Positions 25,364 through 32,649 of a stretch of DNA of 60,744 bases are shown here, piece by piece. This stretch comes from Salinivirgaceae bacterium. GTDB taxonomy: Bacteria > Bacteroidota > Bacteroidia > Bacteroidales > SZUA-534. The DNA lies in contig JAEINW010000004.1 of assembly GCA_016342715.1 (NCBI GenBank), forward strand, positions 1-60,744, in the 5' to 3' direction. The position numbers were made by a program, and so were the translations under genes. Numbering within the stretch: position 1 is the stretch's first letter; each line of letters begins with the position of its first letter. The notes beneath the pieces were generated by a model. That model ran no database searches. It was not told where the DNA came from and worked only from the letters and a program-made list of their open reading frames with translations.

Positions 25364-25371
25364 TACCTTTG
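25364..25371 (+). promoter_or_regulatory. -7 promoter box of the bio operon leader
   Basis: TACCTTTG matches the TAnnTTTG consensus and ends 8 nt before ATG 25380. Confidence 0.65.
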
Positions 25372-25379
25372 CAATCTTA

Positions 25380-25739
25380 ATGCAGCAAAAAAATTACATA
25401 TCAAAAAAATCATTGACTTTCTCCAAATGGAGTAGGAAAGGCTATGCTGTATTTGCTTCTTTGGGAAAAGTGGTGAAAATAGGGCAGCTTAATGTTGAAA
25501 TTTGCAAACAAGCCATTAAGAAAAACACCAATTTATTAATTGAGTTTGTTTTATTAGAAAAAGATAAATTGAATCAAAAAACCGATGAATCCATCGAATT
25601 TTTATTGTCTGAATACTTATTTCAAAACGTAATTTCTATTAAGGCCATCGATTCAAAATTGAATCCACAAGAAAACAAGAAAATAAAAGTATATAATCAA
25701 AATCCATTCCGAACATTCGGGATGGATTTTTTAATTTAA
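25380..25739 (+). CDS. Putative leader/regulatory peptide of the biotin operon (KWSRKGYAVFASLGK motif)
   Basis: 119-codon ORF between the promoter box and bioB; ordered N-terminal motif, low-complexity C-terminal part. Confidence 0.7.
   Translation: MQQKNYISKKSLTFSKWSRKGYAVFASLGKVVKIGQLNVEICKQAIKKNTNLLIEFVLLEKDKLNQKTDESIEFLLSEYLFQNVISIKAIDSKLNPQENKKIKVYNQNPFRTFGMDFLI
25699..25732 (+). terminator. Intrinsic terminator/attenuator inside the 3' end of the leader ORF
   Basis: AAAATCCATTCCGAA-ca-TTCGGGATGGATTTT (one G-U pair) ending in six T. Confidence 0.75.
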
Positions 25740-25843
25740 TACATCATGATAAACAGACAATGTCTGAGATAATTATTGAGAGACAGCATTAACATTTATT
25801 AAAAATGCGTACCATATCAAAGACGGTCAAAAAATTTAAAAAG

Positions 25844-26818
25844 ATGGAGAAAATAACTGATTTTAAGAACAAAGTGCTGAATGGATATCAGTTAACTTAC
25901 GATGAAGGCGTGGAACTTACAAAAGTTGAAAACAAAGAAGACTTATATATAGCTGCTAACGAAATTCGTGCACATTTTTGTGGTGATAAAATAGATCTTT
26001 GTTCCATTACAAATGCAAAGTCGGGTAAATGTTCTGAAAATTGCAAATGGTGTAGCCAATCGGTTTATCATAAAACCAATATAGAAGAATACGAAGTGGT
26101 TGACCGTGAATCGACGATTAAAGAAGCGGTTGAAAACTATAAAAAAGGAGTGAGTCGTCATTCATTGGTTACCAGCGGGCGTGGTGTAAATGATAAAACT
26201 CTGGATCAGTTGATTCCAATTTATAAAGAGATTAAAGAAAAGAGTGATATAAGTTTATGTGCTTCGATGGGACTGATTGATAAGGCTCAGTTAAAAAGAT
26301 TGCGGGATGAAGTAGGAATTGAACATTACCATTGCAATCTGGAAACAGCTCCATCATTTTTCCCTCAATTAGTTACAACACATACTCAGGAAGAGAAAAT
26401 GATTACCATAAAGGCTGCAAAAGAATTGGGAATTAAAATTTGTTCGGGAGGAATCATTGGAATGGGCGAGGAAATGCATCATAGAGTGGAACTGGCTTGC
26501 TCTTTACGTGATTTAGAAGTGCTATCAATTCCAATTAATATTTTAACTCCAATAGAAGGAACTCCTTTGGAAAATGCGAAACCGCTTTCTGAAGAAGAAA
26601 TTTTAACATCTATTGCTGTGTTTAGGTTTATCAATCCAAAAGCTAATTTGCGTTTTGCAGGTGGACGATTAAAAATTAAACACTTTCAAGATAAAGCTTT
26701 ACATGCTGGAATTAGTGCCGCACTAACCGGTGATTATTTAACAACAACAGGTTCAAATATTGAGGAAGATATTCGTGGTTTTAAAAATGCGGGTTTCAAG
26801 ATTACTACTGAATTATGA
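25844..26818 (+). CDS. bioB: Biotin synthase (alternative in-frame start at 25805)
   Basis: Radical SAM CSENCKWCSQS, YHCNLET, CSGGIIGMGE, GDYLTT. Confidence 0.95.
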   Translation: MEKITDFKNKVLNGYQLTYDEGVELTKVENKEDLYIAANEIRAHFCGDKIDLCSITNAKSGKCSENCKWCSQSVYHKTNIEEYEVVDRESTIKEAVENYKKGVSRHSLVTSGRGVNDKTLDQLIPIYKEIKEKSDISLCASMGLIDKAQLKRLRDEVGIEHYHCNLETAPSFFPQLVTTHTQEEKMITIKAAKELGIKICSGGIIGMGEEMHHRVELACSLRDLEVLSIPINILTPIEGTPLENAKPLSEEEILTSIAVFRFINPKANLRFAGGRLKIKHFQDKALHAGISAALTGDYLTTTGSNIEEDIRGFKNAGFKITTEL

Positions 26819-26911: not shown

Positions 26912-28195
26912 ATGACGACCGATGAACTCATAGCATACGACAAGAAACACATCTGGCATCCGTATACATCAGCTACGAAACCCTTACCATGTTACCCGGT
27001 TAAGAAAGCCAATGGTGTTTATTTGGAGTTTGAAGATGGCACCAAAGTTATTGATGGAATGTCAAGCTGGTGGGCTGTAATTCACGGCTACAATCATCCA
27101 GTGTTGAATAAAGCCATGAAAGGCCAGATTGATAACATGTCGCATGTGATGTTTGGCGGATTAACCCATCGTCCCGCAGTTGAATTGGCTCAAAACTTAT
27201 TGAGAATTGTGCCCAAAGGTTTGGAACATATTTTTTATTCCGATTCGGGGTCGGTAGCTGTTGAAGTAGCCATGAAAATGGCGGTTCAATATTGGCATTC
27301 AAAAGGGTTAGCCGATAAATCAGGTTTTTTAACTATACGAAATGGTTATCATGGCGATACATGGAATGCCATGTCGGTTTGCGATCCGCTAACCGGAATG
27401 CATCAAATATTTGAAAAGAATTTACCCAAACAGTATTTTGTTCCAACACCAAGTTCTGATTTTTATGGGGAATTTGATGCATTGGATATTGAACCAATAA
27501 TTAATTTGCTTGAAAAGGAGCATAAAAATATTGCAGCATTTATCTTGGAACCCATAGTTCAGGGAGCGGGAGGAATGCGATTTTATCATCCTCAATTTTT
27601 AAAGGAGCTTCGCGAAATTTGTAATAAATTTGATGTGGTGTTTATTGCCGACGAAATAGCAACGGGGTTTGGACGTACTGGAAAACTTTTTGCTTGTGAA
27701 TATGCGGGAATATTACCAGATATAATGTGTTTAGGCAAAGCGATAACAGGAGGCTATATGAGTTTTGCAGCTACATTAGCAACAAAGGATGTGGCTGAAG
27801 GAATCTGCAATGGAAATCAGGGAGTGTTTATGCACGGTCCAACATTTATGGGAAATCCATTGGCTTGTGCCGTTGCAAATGCTAGTATTAAATTATTATT
27901 GGAAAGTAATTGGCAGGAAAATATTCAGCGCATTGAAGACCACCTAAAAAAAGAATTGCAAGAACTTAAAAATCATAAATCGGTAAAAGATATTAGAGTT
28001 TTAGGAGCTATTGGCGTGGTTGAAATGAAAGAAGCGGTTCAAATGGAGAAAATTCAAAAAGCATTTATCAATGAAGGTATTTGGTTACGTCCATTTGGAA
28101 AATTGGTTTACACCATGCCGCCATTTACCATTAGTAATGAGGAATTGCGAAAGTTAACCGATGGAATGAAGAAAGTTTTATTGAGTATTCAGTAG
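26912..28195 (+). CDS. bioA: DAPA aminotransferase
   Basis: [55 protein letters not shown]. Confidence 0.96.
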
Positions 28196-28304
28196 GCAGT
28201 CTTCAGTCCACAGTTATTTTTACTGAATACAGAATACTGAATACAGAATACTGAATACAGAATACTGAATACAGAATACTGAATACAGAATACTGAAGAC
28301 TGAA
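28184..28304. repeat. Heptamer tandem array (TACTGAA/TACAGAA x11 + GACTGAA) preceded by inverted heptamers
   Basis: 12 heptamers at 28221-28304; AGTATTC AGTAGGC AGTCTTC AGTCCAC at 28184-28211 in inverse orientation. Confidence 0.95.
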
Positions 28305-28305
28305 C

Positions 28306-29427
28306 ATGAAACATAAAAAATACACAAGAGAGTTAATTCTACTTGAGGAATCTGGAAACTTTCGTAAATTCCCAGAACAAGCTTCTGATTCGATGATTGA
28401 TTTGTCGAGCAACGATTATTTGGGCTTAATGCAGAATGCTTCTTTGCAGAATGAATTTATGCAAAGTGTGGATTTATCAAAGCTAAAATTCACTGCCTCA
28501 TCCTCACGTTTGCTTTCTGGAAATTCTAATGAATACACTCAATTGGAGAACTTGATTGCCTCGCAATATCAAAGAGACGCTTGCTTAGTATTTAATAGTG
28601 GTTATCATGCAAATACCGGAATAATTCCGGCTCTGGCTCAAAAGAATGATTTAATTATTGCGGATAAATTGGTTCATGCAAGTATTATTGATGGCATGCA
28701 ATTGAGCAAAGCTGATTTTTTGCGCTACAATCATTTGGATTACGATCATTTAGAATTGCTTCTTGAAAAAAAATCGAAACACTATGAGCATGTTTTTATC
28801 ATTAGCGAAAGTGTTTTTAGCATGGATGGCGACAAAGCAAATATTCAAAAGTTAGTTGAATTAAAAAATAAGTTTGGAGCATTTCTTTACATCGATGAAG
28901 CACATGCCGTAGGAGCTCTCGGAAAAAATGGTTTAGGATGTGTTGAGGAAGAAAACCTAATTCGGGAAGTTGATTTTATTATGGGAACATTTGGTAAAGC
29001 ATTGGCATCGGTTGGCGCTTATCTAGTATGTGATTCTATTTTTAAGCACTACCTAATTAATAAAGCACGAACCTTGATTTTTACAAGCGCATTGCCACCT
29101 ATTAATTTGGCATGGTCGCATTTTATTATGCAAAAACTTCCTGATTTTCATGAAAACCGAATTCAATTAAAAAAGTTGGGGCAGCAGTTTGCAGAACTAC
29201 TAAATGTTAAATCTGATAGTCATATTGTTCCATATATTATTGGAGAGAATAAGAATGCCATTCAAGCTTCGCAACTTTTAAAAGAAAATGGCTTTAACGT
29301 TTTGCCGATTCGTTACCCAACGGTTCCACAAGGAAGGGCAAGATTGCGATTTTCGTTAAATGCCTCTATGAAAATAGGACAGCTAGAGTTGATTGGAAAA
29401 GTATTAACAAGTAATTTAGCAATCTGA
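28306..29427 (+). CDS. bioF: 8-amino-7-oxononanoate synthase
   Basis: SSNDYLGL, SRLLSGN, HASIIDG, FSMDGD, DEAHAVG, GTFGKAL, IRYPTVP. Confidence 0.95.
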   Translation: MKHKKYTRELILLEESGNFRKFPEQASDSMIDLSSNDYLGLMQNASLQNEFMQSVDLSKLKFTASSSRLLSGNSNEYTQLENLIASQYQRDACLVFNSGYHANTGIIPALAQKNDLIIADKLVHASIIDGMQLSKADFLRYNHLDYDHLELLLEKKSKHYEHVFIISESVFSMDGDKANIQKLVELKNKFGAFLYIDEAHAVGALGKNGLGCVEEENLIREVDFIMGTFGKALASVGAYLVCDSIFKHYLINKARTLIFTSALPPINLAWSHFIMQKLPDFHENRIQLKKLGQQFAELLNVKSDSHIVPYIIGENKNAIQASQLLKENGFNVLPIRYPTVPQGRARLRFSLNASMKIGQLELIGKVLTSNLAI

Positions 29428-29524: not shown

Positions 29525-30181
29525 ATGAAAAAACTCTGGATAAATAAGGCAAATAACACAAAATGCATACTATTCTTTAATGGCTGGGGAATGGACGAAA
29601 AGGCTGTTTCTCATATGGAATTTTCTGATTTTGATATTTGTGTGTTTTTCGACTATTCAAACTTTGAATTAGAAATAAACGAATTCGATTCATATCAATC
29701 AGTATATATTGTCGCATGGTCGTTGGGAGTTTGGGTTGCAAGTCAGGTAATGAATAGTGCTAATTTGAATATTGAAAAAGCTATTGCTATTAATGGAACT
29801 GAATTAGCCATTAGTGATGAATATGGAATCCCGCCTAAGGTTCTTATAGGAACGTTGGATTGTTGGGATGAAATAAACCGCGATAAGTTTAATCAGCGGT
29901 TATTTGGTGGAATGATAAAGCTTGGAGAAGCATTTGATAGATTGTCAAACAGAACCATCGAAAACCAAAAGAAAGAACTTGCATATTTAATGAGTGAAAT
30001 TGAAGAAATTTCAGAAACAGACATCAAATGGGATATTGCTTTGATTGGAACCTTGGATTTAATTTTTAGTGCCAAAAATCAGAGTTCTTATTGGGGAATG
30101 AAAACAAAAATAATTGAAAAACCCATGCCACATTATCCCTTTGCCTATTTTACCAATTGGCAACAAATAATTGATTTGTAA
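29525..30181 (+). CDS. bioG: Pimeloyl-ACP methyl ester esterase BioG (DUF452)
   Basis: LFFNGWGMD, nucleophile AWSLG, INGT, PHYPF; lies between bioF and bioC. Confidence 0.85.
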   Translation: MKKLWINKANNTKCILFFNGWGMDEKAVSHMEFSDFDICVFFDYSNFELEINEFDSYQSVYIVAWSLGVWVASQVMNSANLNIEKAIAINGTELAISDEYGIPPKVLIGTLDCWDEINRDKFNQRLFGGMIKLGEAFDRLSNRTIENQKKELAYLMSEIEEISETDIKWDIALIGTLDLIFSAKNQSSYWGMKTKIIEKPMPHYPFAYFTNWQQIIDL

Positions 30182-30949
30182 ATGATAATAGCTGATAAAA
30201 AAATTATAAAAGAAAGGTTTAACCGAAATTTTGCATCCTATCAGTGTGGAGCAATTGTGCAAAAAAAAGTGGTTGAACGTTTTTGCCAGATTCTGCACGA
30301 GCTAAAACTTTCTAATTTTTCAAAAGTGCTAGAAATTGGATGTGGAACTGGATTTTTAAGCAAGGAGTTTTTAAAAAAAGAAAACCCACATCAATATTTT
30401 TTAAACGATTTGAATACTGAAATATTTCAAGGAATTAAGAACACCCTTAATTCAAAGCTCCTTCTAAATTATCAGTATTTATCGGGTGATGCTGAATTAA
30501 TTGATTTTCCTGACGATTTAGATGCTCTAATTTCAACATCTACCATTCAATGGTTTCATAAGCTCGAAAATTTTATTCGTAAAGTTAATTATCATTTAGT
30601 TGAAAACGGAATATTTGCATTTAGTACATTCGGCCAACAAAATTTTATTGAAATTAAAGAAACATTAAAATTGGGCTTAGATTATTATTCAAAAACAGAA
30701 CTTGTGGAAATGTTAAGCGAGAAATTTGACATATTACATTTTGAAGAATGGAAAGAAGCCATGCTTTTTGAAAACCCAAGAGAAGTATTACGTCATATTA
30801 AAACCACAGGAGTTAATGGAATTTCGAATTATTATTGGAGCAAAACAAAATTATTGCAATTTGAGGAGTCTTACATCAATCAGTTTAAAGCGGAAGATAA
30901 AGTGAGGCTTACTTATCATCCGATAATTATTATTGCAAGGAAAAAGTAA
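30182..30949 (+). CDS. bioC: Malonyl-ACP O-methyltransferase
   Basis: LEIGCGTG, GDAE, QWF, FSTFG, TGVN, LTYHP. Confidence 0.92.
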   Translation: MIIADKKIIKERFNRNFASYQCGAIVQKKVVERFCQILHELKLSNFSKVLEIGCGTGFLSKEFLKKENPHQYFLNDLNTEIFQGIKNTLNSKLLLNYQYLSGDAELIDFPDDLDALISTSTIQWFHKLENFIRKVNYHLVENGIFAFSTFGQQNFIEIKETLKLGLDYYSKTELVEMLSEKFDILHFEEWKEAMLFENPREVLRHIKTTGVNGISNYYWSKTKLLQFEESYINQFKAEDKVRLTYHPIIIIARKK

Positions 30950-31272
30950 ATGATAACAAGATGCTTAGCGATTATTTTAACAATACGAATCAAATCGGGA
31001 TTATTTCAGAGTGTTTTGTTTTGAAATCGCTTAGCATCTATTCTAAACTATTATGAATAATATAATCATGGCATAGTTCGCAAAAGAGAAAAATGCAAAA
31101 GGCGCAAAGAACAAAATTCAAGGATTAAAATCTTTGCGTCTTTTTCGGTTCCCTTAGCGCTTTTTGCGTGGTGTTTTTTTTAATGTTAACGAGATGCTTT
31201 GCGAATGTATTTGTAAAAAGATTTCGTAATTATGCTAATTAGCTATTCGTTTAGCATCTATTTTAAATATCT
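30950..31272. repeat. Two related hairpin units flanking a CGCAAAG-type inverted repeat
   Basis: AGATGCTTAGCGATT/AATCGCTTAGCATCT (30959-31039) and AGATGCTTTGCGAAT/ATTCGTTTAGCATCT (31192-31259); CGCAAAAG..CGCAAAGA / TCTTTGCG..TTTTGCG between them. Confidence 0.75.
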
Positions 31273-31926
31273 ATGAAAAACAAAACATACTTTATAAGCG
31301 GAATTGATACCGATTGTGGTAAAACTTATATCACTGGGAATTTAGCAAAGCTTTTGCAAAGTCATGGCAAAAAAGTGATTACACACAAATTAATTCAAAC
31401 AGGCTGCGCAGGAATCTCTGAAGATGTTTTGGAACATAGAAGGATTATGGGTGTCGATTTATTCCCTGAAGACAAAAGTGGAATTACCTGTCCGTATGTG
31501 TTGTCTTTTCCAGCTTCTCCGCATTTAGCTTGCGAAATTGATAAGCTTGAATTAGATTTTGATAGTATTAAATCATCAATCTCAGCGCTAGCTTCAAAAT
31601 ACGAAATTGTACTTTGCGAAGGTGCCGGAGGTTTAATGGTTCCGCTAAAAAAAGATTATTTAACTATTGATTTTATTAAAGAAAACAACTATCCAGTTAT
31701 ATTAGTTAGCTCTTCAAAATTGGGAAGTATCAATCACACAATTTTAAGTTTGCAAGCATGTAAAAGTTATGGAATTGATTTAAAATATGTTATTTATAAT
31801 GAGTTCCCAGACCAGAATAAATTAATTTCAGAGGATTCATATAAATATTTAAAATCGTATGTGCAAAGCAATTTTACAAATGTAGAATTCTTTAGAAATG
31901 AAAATTTAGATCAAATAAAACTATGA
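31273..31926 (+). CDS. bioD: Dethiobiotin synthase
   Basis: SGIDTDCGKT, KLIQTG, ASPHLA, EGAGGLMVP, LGSINHT. Confidence 0.95.
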   Translation: MKNKTYFISGIDTDCGKTYITGNLAKLLQSHGKKVITHKLIQTGCAGISEDVLEHRRIMGVDLFPEDKSGITCPYVLSFPASPHLACEIDKLELDFDSIKSSISALASKYEIVLCEGAGGLMVPLKKDYLTIDFIKENNYPVILVSSSKLGSINHTILSLQACKSYGIDLKYVIYNEFPDQNKLISEDSYKYLKSYVQSNFTNVEFFRNENLDQIKL

Positions 31927-31968: not shown

Positions 31969-32649
31969 ATGCAAGAAATTCTGGAACAAATAAAGGAATC
32001 TTTTAATGATGAAATTTTATCTCGATCGGAGAAACGAAATTTAAAAGAAATAATTAGTAGCAATAAACTTTCAAAGAGTGATTTAGATTGGTTGCGGAAT
32101 GGAGTGTTTTTATTTGCAAGAGAGAAATCAACAAGTGTTGAAGGTGAAAAAATTATTAATTGGCTAGAGAAAGCAAACAAACTGCTTCTGCCAAAAATAG
32201 ATGATCATCCAGAAAAAAGAGTTTTTTTTAGTCCTGGTGATGAATGTTTGCTGGCAATTATCGATCATTTAAACAAAGCTGTTTCAAACATTGATATTTG
32301 TGTTTTTACCATTAGCGATAATCGGCTTTCCGATAAAATAATTGAAGCTCACCGCAGAGGAGTTAGAATAAGAATAATTACTGATGACGATAAATCAAAT
32401 GATAGGGGCTCTGATATCCACAAAATGGCTGAATTAGGAATTGATATAAAAATGGACAATTCATCCTATCATATGCATCATAAATTTGCCATTTTTGACA
32501 AGGTAGATGTAATTACCGGTAGTTTTAATTGGACTCGCAGTGCTGCAGAATATAACCAAGAGAATATATTAGTTAGTTCAGATAAACATGTAATTTCCGC
32601 TTATGTAAATAAGTTTGAATCACTTTGGCAATTAATGAAAATCTATTAA
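31969..32649 (+). CDS. Single-HKD phospholipase D-family nuclease (Nuc/Zucchini-like)
   Basis: FFSPG, HHKFAIFD (HxKxxxxD), TGSFNWT...NQEN. Confidence 0.85.
   Translation: MQEILEQIKESFNDEILSRSEKRNLKEIISSNKLSKSDLDWLRNGVFLFAREKSTSVEGEKIINWLEKANKLLLPKIDDHPEKRVFFSPGDECLLAIIDHLNKAVSNIDICVFTISDNRLSDKIIEAHRRGVRIRIITDDDKSNDRGSDIHKMAELGIDIKMDNSSYHMHHKFAIFDKVDVITGSFNWTRSAAEYNQENILVSSDKHVISAYVNKFESLWQLMKIY

Follow-up and report, generated by a model that had tools for sequence, protein, structure and literature searches.

The biotin operon of a Salinivirgaceae bacterium is headed by a leader open reading frame (ORF) whose copies in relatives carry the annotation "hypothetical protein". The questions addressed are what the leader does and whether its peptide, its RNA or its DNA is the acting part. 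The leader was analysed within a stretch of 60,744 nt, referred to as the window (Table 1). Its translation starts with MQQKNYISKKSLTFSKWSRKGYAVFASLGKVVKIGQL. Searches against Pfam, NCBIfam, Rfam (judged at the gathering score) and PDB sequences gave no match; the best Rfam score at the leader was that of the PyrG leader (27.7 of 65 bits) and lay on the hairpin at the ORF end.

TAnnTTTG is given as the Bacteroidota -7 promoter consensus in the accessible part of PMC7366714. Because this element lies so near to the ATG in the window, the leader mRNA is predicted to be almost leaderless. Among the 74 short-ORF loci compared below, TAnnTTTG occurs at most 80 nt from the start in 49 and at most 8 nt in 21, as a raw count without shuffle control.

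Table 1. Features of the leader and the biotin operon in the window
Feature	Position	Strand	Remarks
Bacteroidota -7 promoter element TAnnTTTG, TACCTTTG	25364..25371	+	seen in sequence, 8 nt 5' of ATG
Leader ORF, 119 aa	25380..25739	+	directly 5' of bioB-A-F-G-C-D
Conserved core F14-L37, FSKWSRKGYAVFASLGKVVKIGQL, candidate sensing/arrest peptide	25419..25490	+	codons 14-37; profile, codon usage, dN/dS, structure model
Spacer, unconserved but open frame	25491..25698	+	D/E-rich in homologues
Intrinsic-terminator-like hairpin with U-run, 14 pairs, -18.6 kcal/mol	25699..25737	+	5' end 38 nt before leader stop codon
bioB, biotin synthase	25805..26818	+	TIGR00433 381 bits, cut-off 225
bioA	26912..28195	+	TIGR00508 609 bits, cut-off 405
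bioF	28306..29427	+	best match TIGR00858 391 bits, below cut-off 426; operon position
bioG	29525..30181	+	PF04301 151 bits
bioC	30182..30949	+	TIGR02072 198 bits, cut-off 185
bioD	31273..31926	+	TIGR00347 164 bits, cut-off 83

Several further observations concern the operon and its surroundings. For bioB, two candidate starts lie in 25805-25846, and translation may begin at the second ATG (25844), which homologues favour; this start is located 114 nt after the hairpin, compared to the usual 14-40 nt. The gap between bioA and bioF contains a tandem array of 12 copies of a 7-mer (28221-28304; 100% match when read as a 14-mer), and the 323-nt gap between bioC and bioD (30950-31272) contains imperfect repeats of a GCTTAGC/AGCATCT-like word, which resemble small palindromic repeat elements. 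A CxxCxxCC gene (PF03692, 24669-25268) is located immediately upstream of the leader, and homologues of it are found two genes 3' of a motif-bearing transporter gene in two same-family genomes (L046, L047). Directly 3' of bioD, on the same strand, a protein with a PLD-like domain is encoded (31969-32649); other bio loci have no such conserved neighbour.

Distribution of the motif and its gene neighbours

The core of the leader is described by the 24-residue motif F-x-R-W-S-R-K-x-Y-A-x-F-x-S-L-G-x-x-V-x-I-G-x-L. A search profile built from 20 homologous stretches scored 68.6 bits at the leader and nowhere above 11 bits elsewhere in the genome, showing that the motif is present in a single copy. 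The 20-row profile matched 190 of 401 Bacteroidales genomes (E<=0.001), almost always with one copy each, and the first 45 codons of the leader found matches in 41 of 61 genomes. A protein cluster search (50% identity, 1.84 billion representatives) yielded 1,544 matching clusters, and in the best 150 of these the match starts within the first 42 residues. The motif thus occurs far beyond chance expectation. Using the whole-length leader protein as query retrieved just three relatives, because the leader tail diverges.

In a phylum sample of 401 genomes, the matches at E<1e-8 were the window, six of seven same-order genomes and one same-class genome; 20 further matches, all with E>=0.002, were dismissed as noise. 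Named records with the motif come from Bacteroidales, except for two Flavobacteriales assemblies and one other label. The Flavobacteriales-labelled assemblies (L151/L234 and L237) contain a motif leader with a bio operon, which may have been acquired by transfer; the hairpin search was negative in L151.

Altogether, 181 loci were read, consisting of the window, 100 chosen regions and the best 80 of 158 loci from named records. The chosen regions comprise short-ORF matches plus a sample of long ones, and about six places are duplicated among the 181 loci; since the loci were selected, the proportions of the architectures do not reflect their prevalence. Four architectures, all linked to biotin genes or to a TonB-dependent transporter (TBDT), account for 177 of the 181 loci: a short ORF 5' of bio genes (87, including L233, which is actually a BioB-A fusion), a short ORF 5' of a TBDT gene (12, three of which are interrupted fusions), the motif fused to the TBDT (61) and the motif fused to BioB or BioB-BioA (17). 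Three of the remaining four loci are at contig ends, and in the fourth bioF is located slightly beyond. In none of the 181 loci does the motif head any other gene. Both the small ORFs before bio genes and the N-terminal extensions of TonB-dependent receptors, which the original prediction had named, were thus recovered, and in the loci read the motif marks biotin synthesis genes and one TBDT family only. Since it is found on both kinds of genes, the genomic evidence bears out the proposed regulon.

At one syntenic site the fused form is present in L203 and the split form in L205, L217 and L220, showing that the forms interconvert. In three loci (L113, L192, L194) a short motif ORF precedes a TBDT that itself carries a motif. 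In these tandem loci (L113/L190, L192, L194) the second, TBDT-borne motif is more diverged, and between the tandem motifs of L113 and L192 no strong hairpin was found. In L222 and L257 a motif leader precedes a BioB-BioA-BioF triple fusion with a length of about 1,130 residues.

Constraint on the core peptide

Codon usage of the core was analysed in 145 sequences that are less than 85% identical. About ten residues of the core are conserved order-wide; F0 was kept in 144 sequences, W3 in 141, K6 in 132, F11 in 133 and I20 in 143. At R5, S4, S13, L14 and L23 all six synonymous codons are in use, third codon positions are free to vary, and serine alternates between AGY and TCN. Comparison of 23 short-ORF pairs gave a dN/dS of about 0.07 for the core, 0.55 before it and 0.21 after it; for 15 TBDT pairs the core value was 0.14. 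RNA folding of the core showed no excess over synonymous recoding (mean z -0.43). The conserved unit is the amino acid sequence and not the nucleotide sequence. The original prediction had left the choice between a nascent peptide and the RNA beneath it; its first option is borne out by codon usage and dN/dS, while the second finds no excess folding to build on.

That a riboswitch-like fold or a DNA operator is conserved and the ORF is incidental would fit with the location of the motif just past the promoter and with the hairpin that the minimum-energy structure places in the motif region of the window. Such an element is nevertheless extremely improbable, given the free third positions, the switching of serine between AGY and TCN, z<=-2 in 4 of 60 cores against synonymous recoding, and no Rfam match at gathering score.

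Across 143 loci, a total of 131 in-frame ATGs are located 11-15 codons 5' of the F, giving the motif a fixed N-terminal position. The codon profile contains no conserved proline or stall codon, and residues past L37 vary by class. A RAPP-like arrest motif is absent from the conserved positions of a 58-codon profile and from the leader ORF of the window. The core ends at least 57 codons before the leader stop, and the leader has no conserved terminal residue. A model of residues 4-51 gave a strand-helix-strand-helix arrangement (pLDDT 78), for which Foldseek found no match at E<=0.001 with the 48-residue model. Two further candidates were rejected: profile comparison showed no likeness of the core to the BirA biotin loop, and a biotinylated lysine in the motif was set aside, K6 being replaced in 13 of 145 sequences and K16 often being arginine.

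The hairpin at the leader end and the proposed arrest

According to the original prediction only about 45 codons of the leader are ordered and the rest is low-complexity and spacer-like. This is correct for the sequence but incomplete, since the tail is kept open and ends in a terminator-like hairpin (25699-25730) that the original prediction does not mention. In all 74 short-ORF loci the leader frame is stop-free from F+24 to F+79, compared to 2 and 2 loci for the other two frames, and the leader extends 80-223 codons past the F.

Hairpins were scored with a strict rule (at most -12 kcal/mol, with a U-run at its end, near the ORF end). With this rule a hairpin was found in 61 of 74 short-ORF loci, in contrast to 1 of 58 TBDT fusions, 1 of 10 BioB fusions and 6 of 73 coding controls; 13 of the 74 short-ORF loci are thus negative. 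A looser rule detected 68 of 74 short-ORF loci but also 30 of 58 TBDT controls, and because of this loss of specificity the strict rule alone was used. Counted from the first base of the stop codon, the 5' arms of all 61 hairpins begin in a range from 146 nt upstream to 11 nt downstream, and in 60 of 61 loci the hairpin is located 233-332 nt 3' of the F codon. Their position is conserved while their sequences differ among the 61 loci. In the window's genome, 287 of 1,500 sampled genes have a hairpin of this kind; of 212 such ordinary hairpins starting from -13 onward, 170 start at +12 or later. The terminator-like hairpin of the biotin leader is therefore overlapped by the leader ORF or lies within a ribosome footprint of it, as in pyrBI-type attenuators. 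The 12-nt footprint rule is said to originate from work of Johnson and colleagues in 2020 on terminator spacing and transcription-translation coupling. For Bacteroidales, we infer such coupling solely from the hairpin spacing. Upstream pairing of the hairpin 5' arm was no better than in shuffled sequences (mean z -0.14), giving no indication of an antiterminator, and the codon profile showed no regulatory codon run in the leader. In one leader (L242:589-1128) part of the hairpin 3' arm seems to have been lost in comparison to L231 and L262; this leader continues into another, weaker hairpin.

We consider cis action of the core peptide likely: at high biotin the nascent chain would arrest the ribosome that is making it. 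At low biotin the ribosome would trail RNA polymerase through the leader and cover the 5' arm of the hairpin, and the operon would be transcribed. At high biotin the ribosome would halt in the region of codons 37-70, leaving about 200 nt to the hairpin; translation would then be uncoupled from transcription, the hairpin would form and transcription would terminate in the split loci. In fusions to BioB or to the TBDT signal peptide the arrest itself would be the off switch, and these fusions would need no terminator because arrest directly cuts synthesis. Arrest is assigned to high biotin, since with the reverse sign the fusions would be shut off just when the cell requires them; this single sign would account for all architectures. 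Biotin may bind the peptide-ribosome complex directly or may act via a factor, for instance biotin-loaded BirA. The length of the leader speaks against arrest, since known tunnel-sensing peptides are far shorter, and so does the lack of a conserved proline or stall codon.

The compact strand-helix-strand-helix model would also suit a folded docking tag that works outside the tunnel and recruits a trans factor, with readthrough at low biotin or action of Rho or an RNase at high biotin and no true arrest. The spacer of 233-332 nt would let such a module emerge before the hairpin is made. We give this a small but appreciable chance: no conserved regulator gene was found beside the motif in the loci read, an antiterminator would find no intrinsic terminator to act on in most TBDT and BioB fusions, and the core resembles neither BirA nor solved folds.

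Arrest might also respond to another signal, such as a precursor (dethiobiotin, DAPA, KAPA or a pimeloyl thioester), SAM, Fe-S or lipid-synthesis status. Plant CGS1, in which SAM is sensed by an N-terminal arrest peptide, is a precedent, and two kinds of loci point in this direction: in genome G046 (L043) the motif-TBDT is followed by bioB alone, which suggests dethiobiotin salvage, and in five loci (L121, L128, L302, L304, L307) the leader precedes bioA while bioB is elsewhere or missing. However, joint repression of synthesis and uptake fits best with the end product, and the 132 motif genomes with a TBDT and without bioA would lack the intermediates, making a signal other than biotin unlikely.

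RNA data were obtained from two raw-read runs of a single study on a relative of L264, with reads mostly 90-95% alike. At low counts, depth was 6.0 and 10.8 in the 5' part of the leader and 0.60 and 0.35 in bioB-A. The 5' part is thus covered 10-30-fold deeper than bioB-A; one leader bin is empty, and the drop is not assignable to the hairpin. RNA of bioF-D was near zero, and depth in a neighbouring gene fell less than 3-fold from 5' to 3'. Logan contigs of the RNA runs (X10, X13) were uninformative on RNA level or ends. After bioB-A, a multi-copy inverted-repeat element (L264:12620-12700) attracts numerous reads that stem from other parts of the genome.

The near-zero bio operon RNA in this single data set, and the fact that no sensor was identified in this analysis, would be expected if the peptide were a constitutive brake that slows ribosomes whatever the biotin concentration and keeps low-demand genes weak. 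A weak promoter would be the cheaper means to this end, and the strict confinement to biotin genes together with about ten conserved residues argues for specific sensing; a mere brake is decidedly unlikely.

The linked transporter and comparison with known systems

In four of four transporters examined, PF07715 and PF00593 scored above cut-off, showing the presence of plug and barrel domains. The linked protein has the features of a TonB-dependent transporter, namely a signal peptide, a plug and 22-strand barrel domains. It remains below every NCBIfam cut-off, with best scores of about 120-135 bits (32-135 bits on BtuB TIGR01779 versus 599.7 needed), and it has no close solved relative, the best being BtuB with 121 bits.

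Among the 401 order genomes bioA was found in 82, the TBDT in 197 and both in 10; P values for this co-occurrence are overstated because the genomes are related, and TBDT absences are soft because the search scored only three candidates in each genome and overlooked at least G470. Read by eye by family, 19 families have both traits and 14 of them contain no double genome. In 166 genomes of the phylum sample, mostly outside the range of the motif, bioA occurs in 3 of 42 TBDT genomes versus 86 of 124 others. The motif-TBDT is located 5' of bioB in L043 and 5' of the entire bio operon in L297 and L298. This near-exclusion with bioA and the position at the head of bio genes in three genomes support an importer, and we predict with good confidence from these gene patterns that the TBDT takes up biotin or a precursor. 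The outer-membrane biotin transporter anticipated by the original prediction thus has a candidate family. The window's genome has no member of it (best score 135 bits).

The motif is present in 53 of 82 bioA genomes, in 132 of 187 TBDT-only genomes and in 5 of 132 genomes with neither; it is absent from 29 and 55 genomes of the first two groups and is thus not indispensable. In the 29 bioA genomes without a match, no motif was detected near bioA in the regions examined, several of which end at a contig edge. In five loci (L109, L110, L311, L318, L323) the TBDT gene is followed by a short-chain dehydrogenase gene and an acyl-CoA-synthetase-like gene, neighbours that may hint at a fatty-acyl or pimelate-type substrate.

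In the TBDT fusions the n-region of a signal peptide about 50 residues long consists of the motif, comparable to the extended signal peptides of autotransporters. A post-translational role as a degron, a timer of signal-peptide export or a small trans-acting protein could be derived from this. Yet the motif also occurs without a hydrophobic region in short ORFs and BioB fusions, and family members are exported without it: it was absent from five TBDTs that are preceded by a short ORF, as well as from 19 of 20 other family members, the remaining one having a diverged copy. Since most of the TBDTs examined that have no fused match lack the motif, it is not an export signal. A post-translational role would also leave the terminator within the ORF end unexplained and is very unlikely.

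Cis-acting arrest by the core, the reading we favour, shares features with several known systems. In E. coli pyrBI and pyrE the leader ORF runs into an intrinsic terminator without an antiterminator helix, and a close ribosome blocks the hairpin; the signal is UTP-dependent pausing of the polymerase, and the peptide sequence is unimportant. The terminator layout of the biotin leader is alike, but here the conserved part is the peptide. Attenuators of the trpL/pheL type use a regulatory codon run and an antiterminator helix, both absent from the biotin leader, and the conserved nucleotides and structure of riboswitches were not found for it. In plant CGS1 (MTO1, SAM) and fungal AAP (arginine) arrest by the end product represses the own gene, and AAP occurs as a uORF or as a fusion; these systems differ in being eukaryotic, in their ligands and in lacking terminator coupling. 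We know of no biotin riboswitch. It is possible, though on balance doubtful, that the core is the peptide counterpart of one: a nascent chain that would bind biotin on the ribosome without a regulator protein, move among a separate leader with a coupling terminator, an enzyme N-terminus and a signal peptide, and mark what would be the first family of outer-membrane biotin transporters in Bacteroidota.

With TnaC (tryptophan) and SpeFL (ornithine) the biotin leader shares a conserved leader before a metabolic operon and, as predicted here, ligand stalling coupled to termination (accessible part of PMC12360218). According to the same source, stalling by TnaC and SpeFL takes place at the stop codon, a Rho site is masked and genes are turned on. 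In contrast, the conserved block of the biotin leader is N-terminal in an ORF of 95-190 codons, an intrinsic terminator overlaps the ORF end, stalling would turn genes off, and the peptide is also found in in-frame fusions. No homology to TnaC, SpeFL or another described arrest peptide was detected in the Pfam, NCBIfam and PDB sequence searches. The excerpts available of PMC12360218 and PMC9973294 describe BfrG of Bordetella, a TonB-dependent copper importer under control of the uORF CruR; in CruR-BfrG and CutF, as proposed here, a uORF nascent chain controls a gene by ligand supply, in the former case that of a TonB-dependent importer. As far as these excerpts show, CruR relies on CXXC and on a RAPP motif at its C-terminus, stalls when ligand is absent and acts via Rho, none of which applies to the biotin-leader motif, and CutF is exported, a feature the motif also lacks.

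BirA of the HTH type, BioQ, BioY and YigM have the same task, which is to adjust synthesis and uptake to the biotin supply, and the accessible text of PMC6593275 gives BirA and BioQ as the only biotin regulators and BioY and YigM as the only transporters. Unlike HTH-type BirA, BirA of the window's genome (245 aa) starts directly with the ligase domain and has no DNA-binding domain. A full-text literature search, subscription papers not covered, found neither the motif nor a biotin leader peptide described, nor a substrate given for the TBDT, and the portions at hand of PMC5317091, PMC10434189, PMC13753749 and bioRxiv 10.1101/2023.03.17.533168 contain nothing on the element. The motif leader is real and apparently undescribed.

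If the proposed arrest is correct, nascent peptides would be seen to sense a vitamin as well, here with the sign reversed in that stalling turns genes off. One module would serve in three gene architectures as a so far undescribed biotin switch. Bacteroidales dominate gut and sediment communities. The TBDT family, present in 197 of the 401 order genomes and mostly in those lacking bioA, obtains a candidate substrate, and makers and takers of biotin would thereby become predictable in microbiomes. In B. thetaiotaomicron, BT_1442 has 2,415 nt and its own start site 28 nt upstream (supplement of PMC7366714, as far as accessible). Its length equals that of the motif-BioB-BioA fusion class, and judged by length alone a genetic model is probably at hand.
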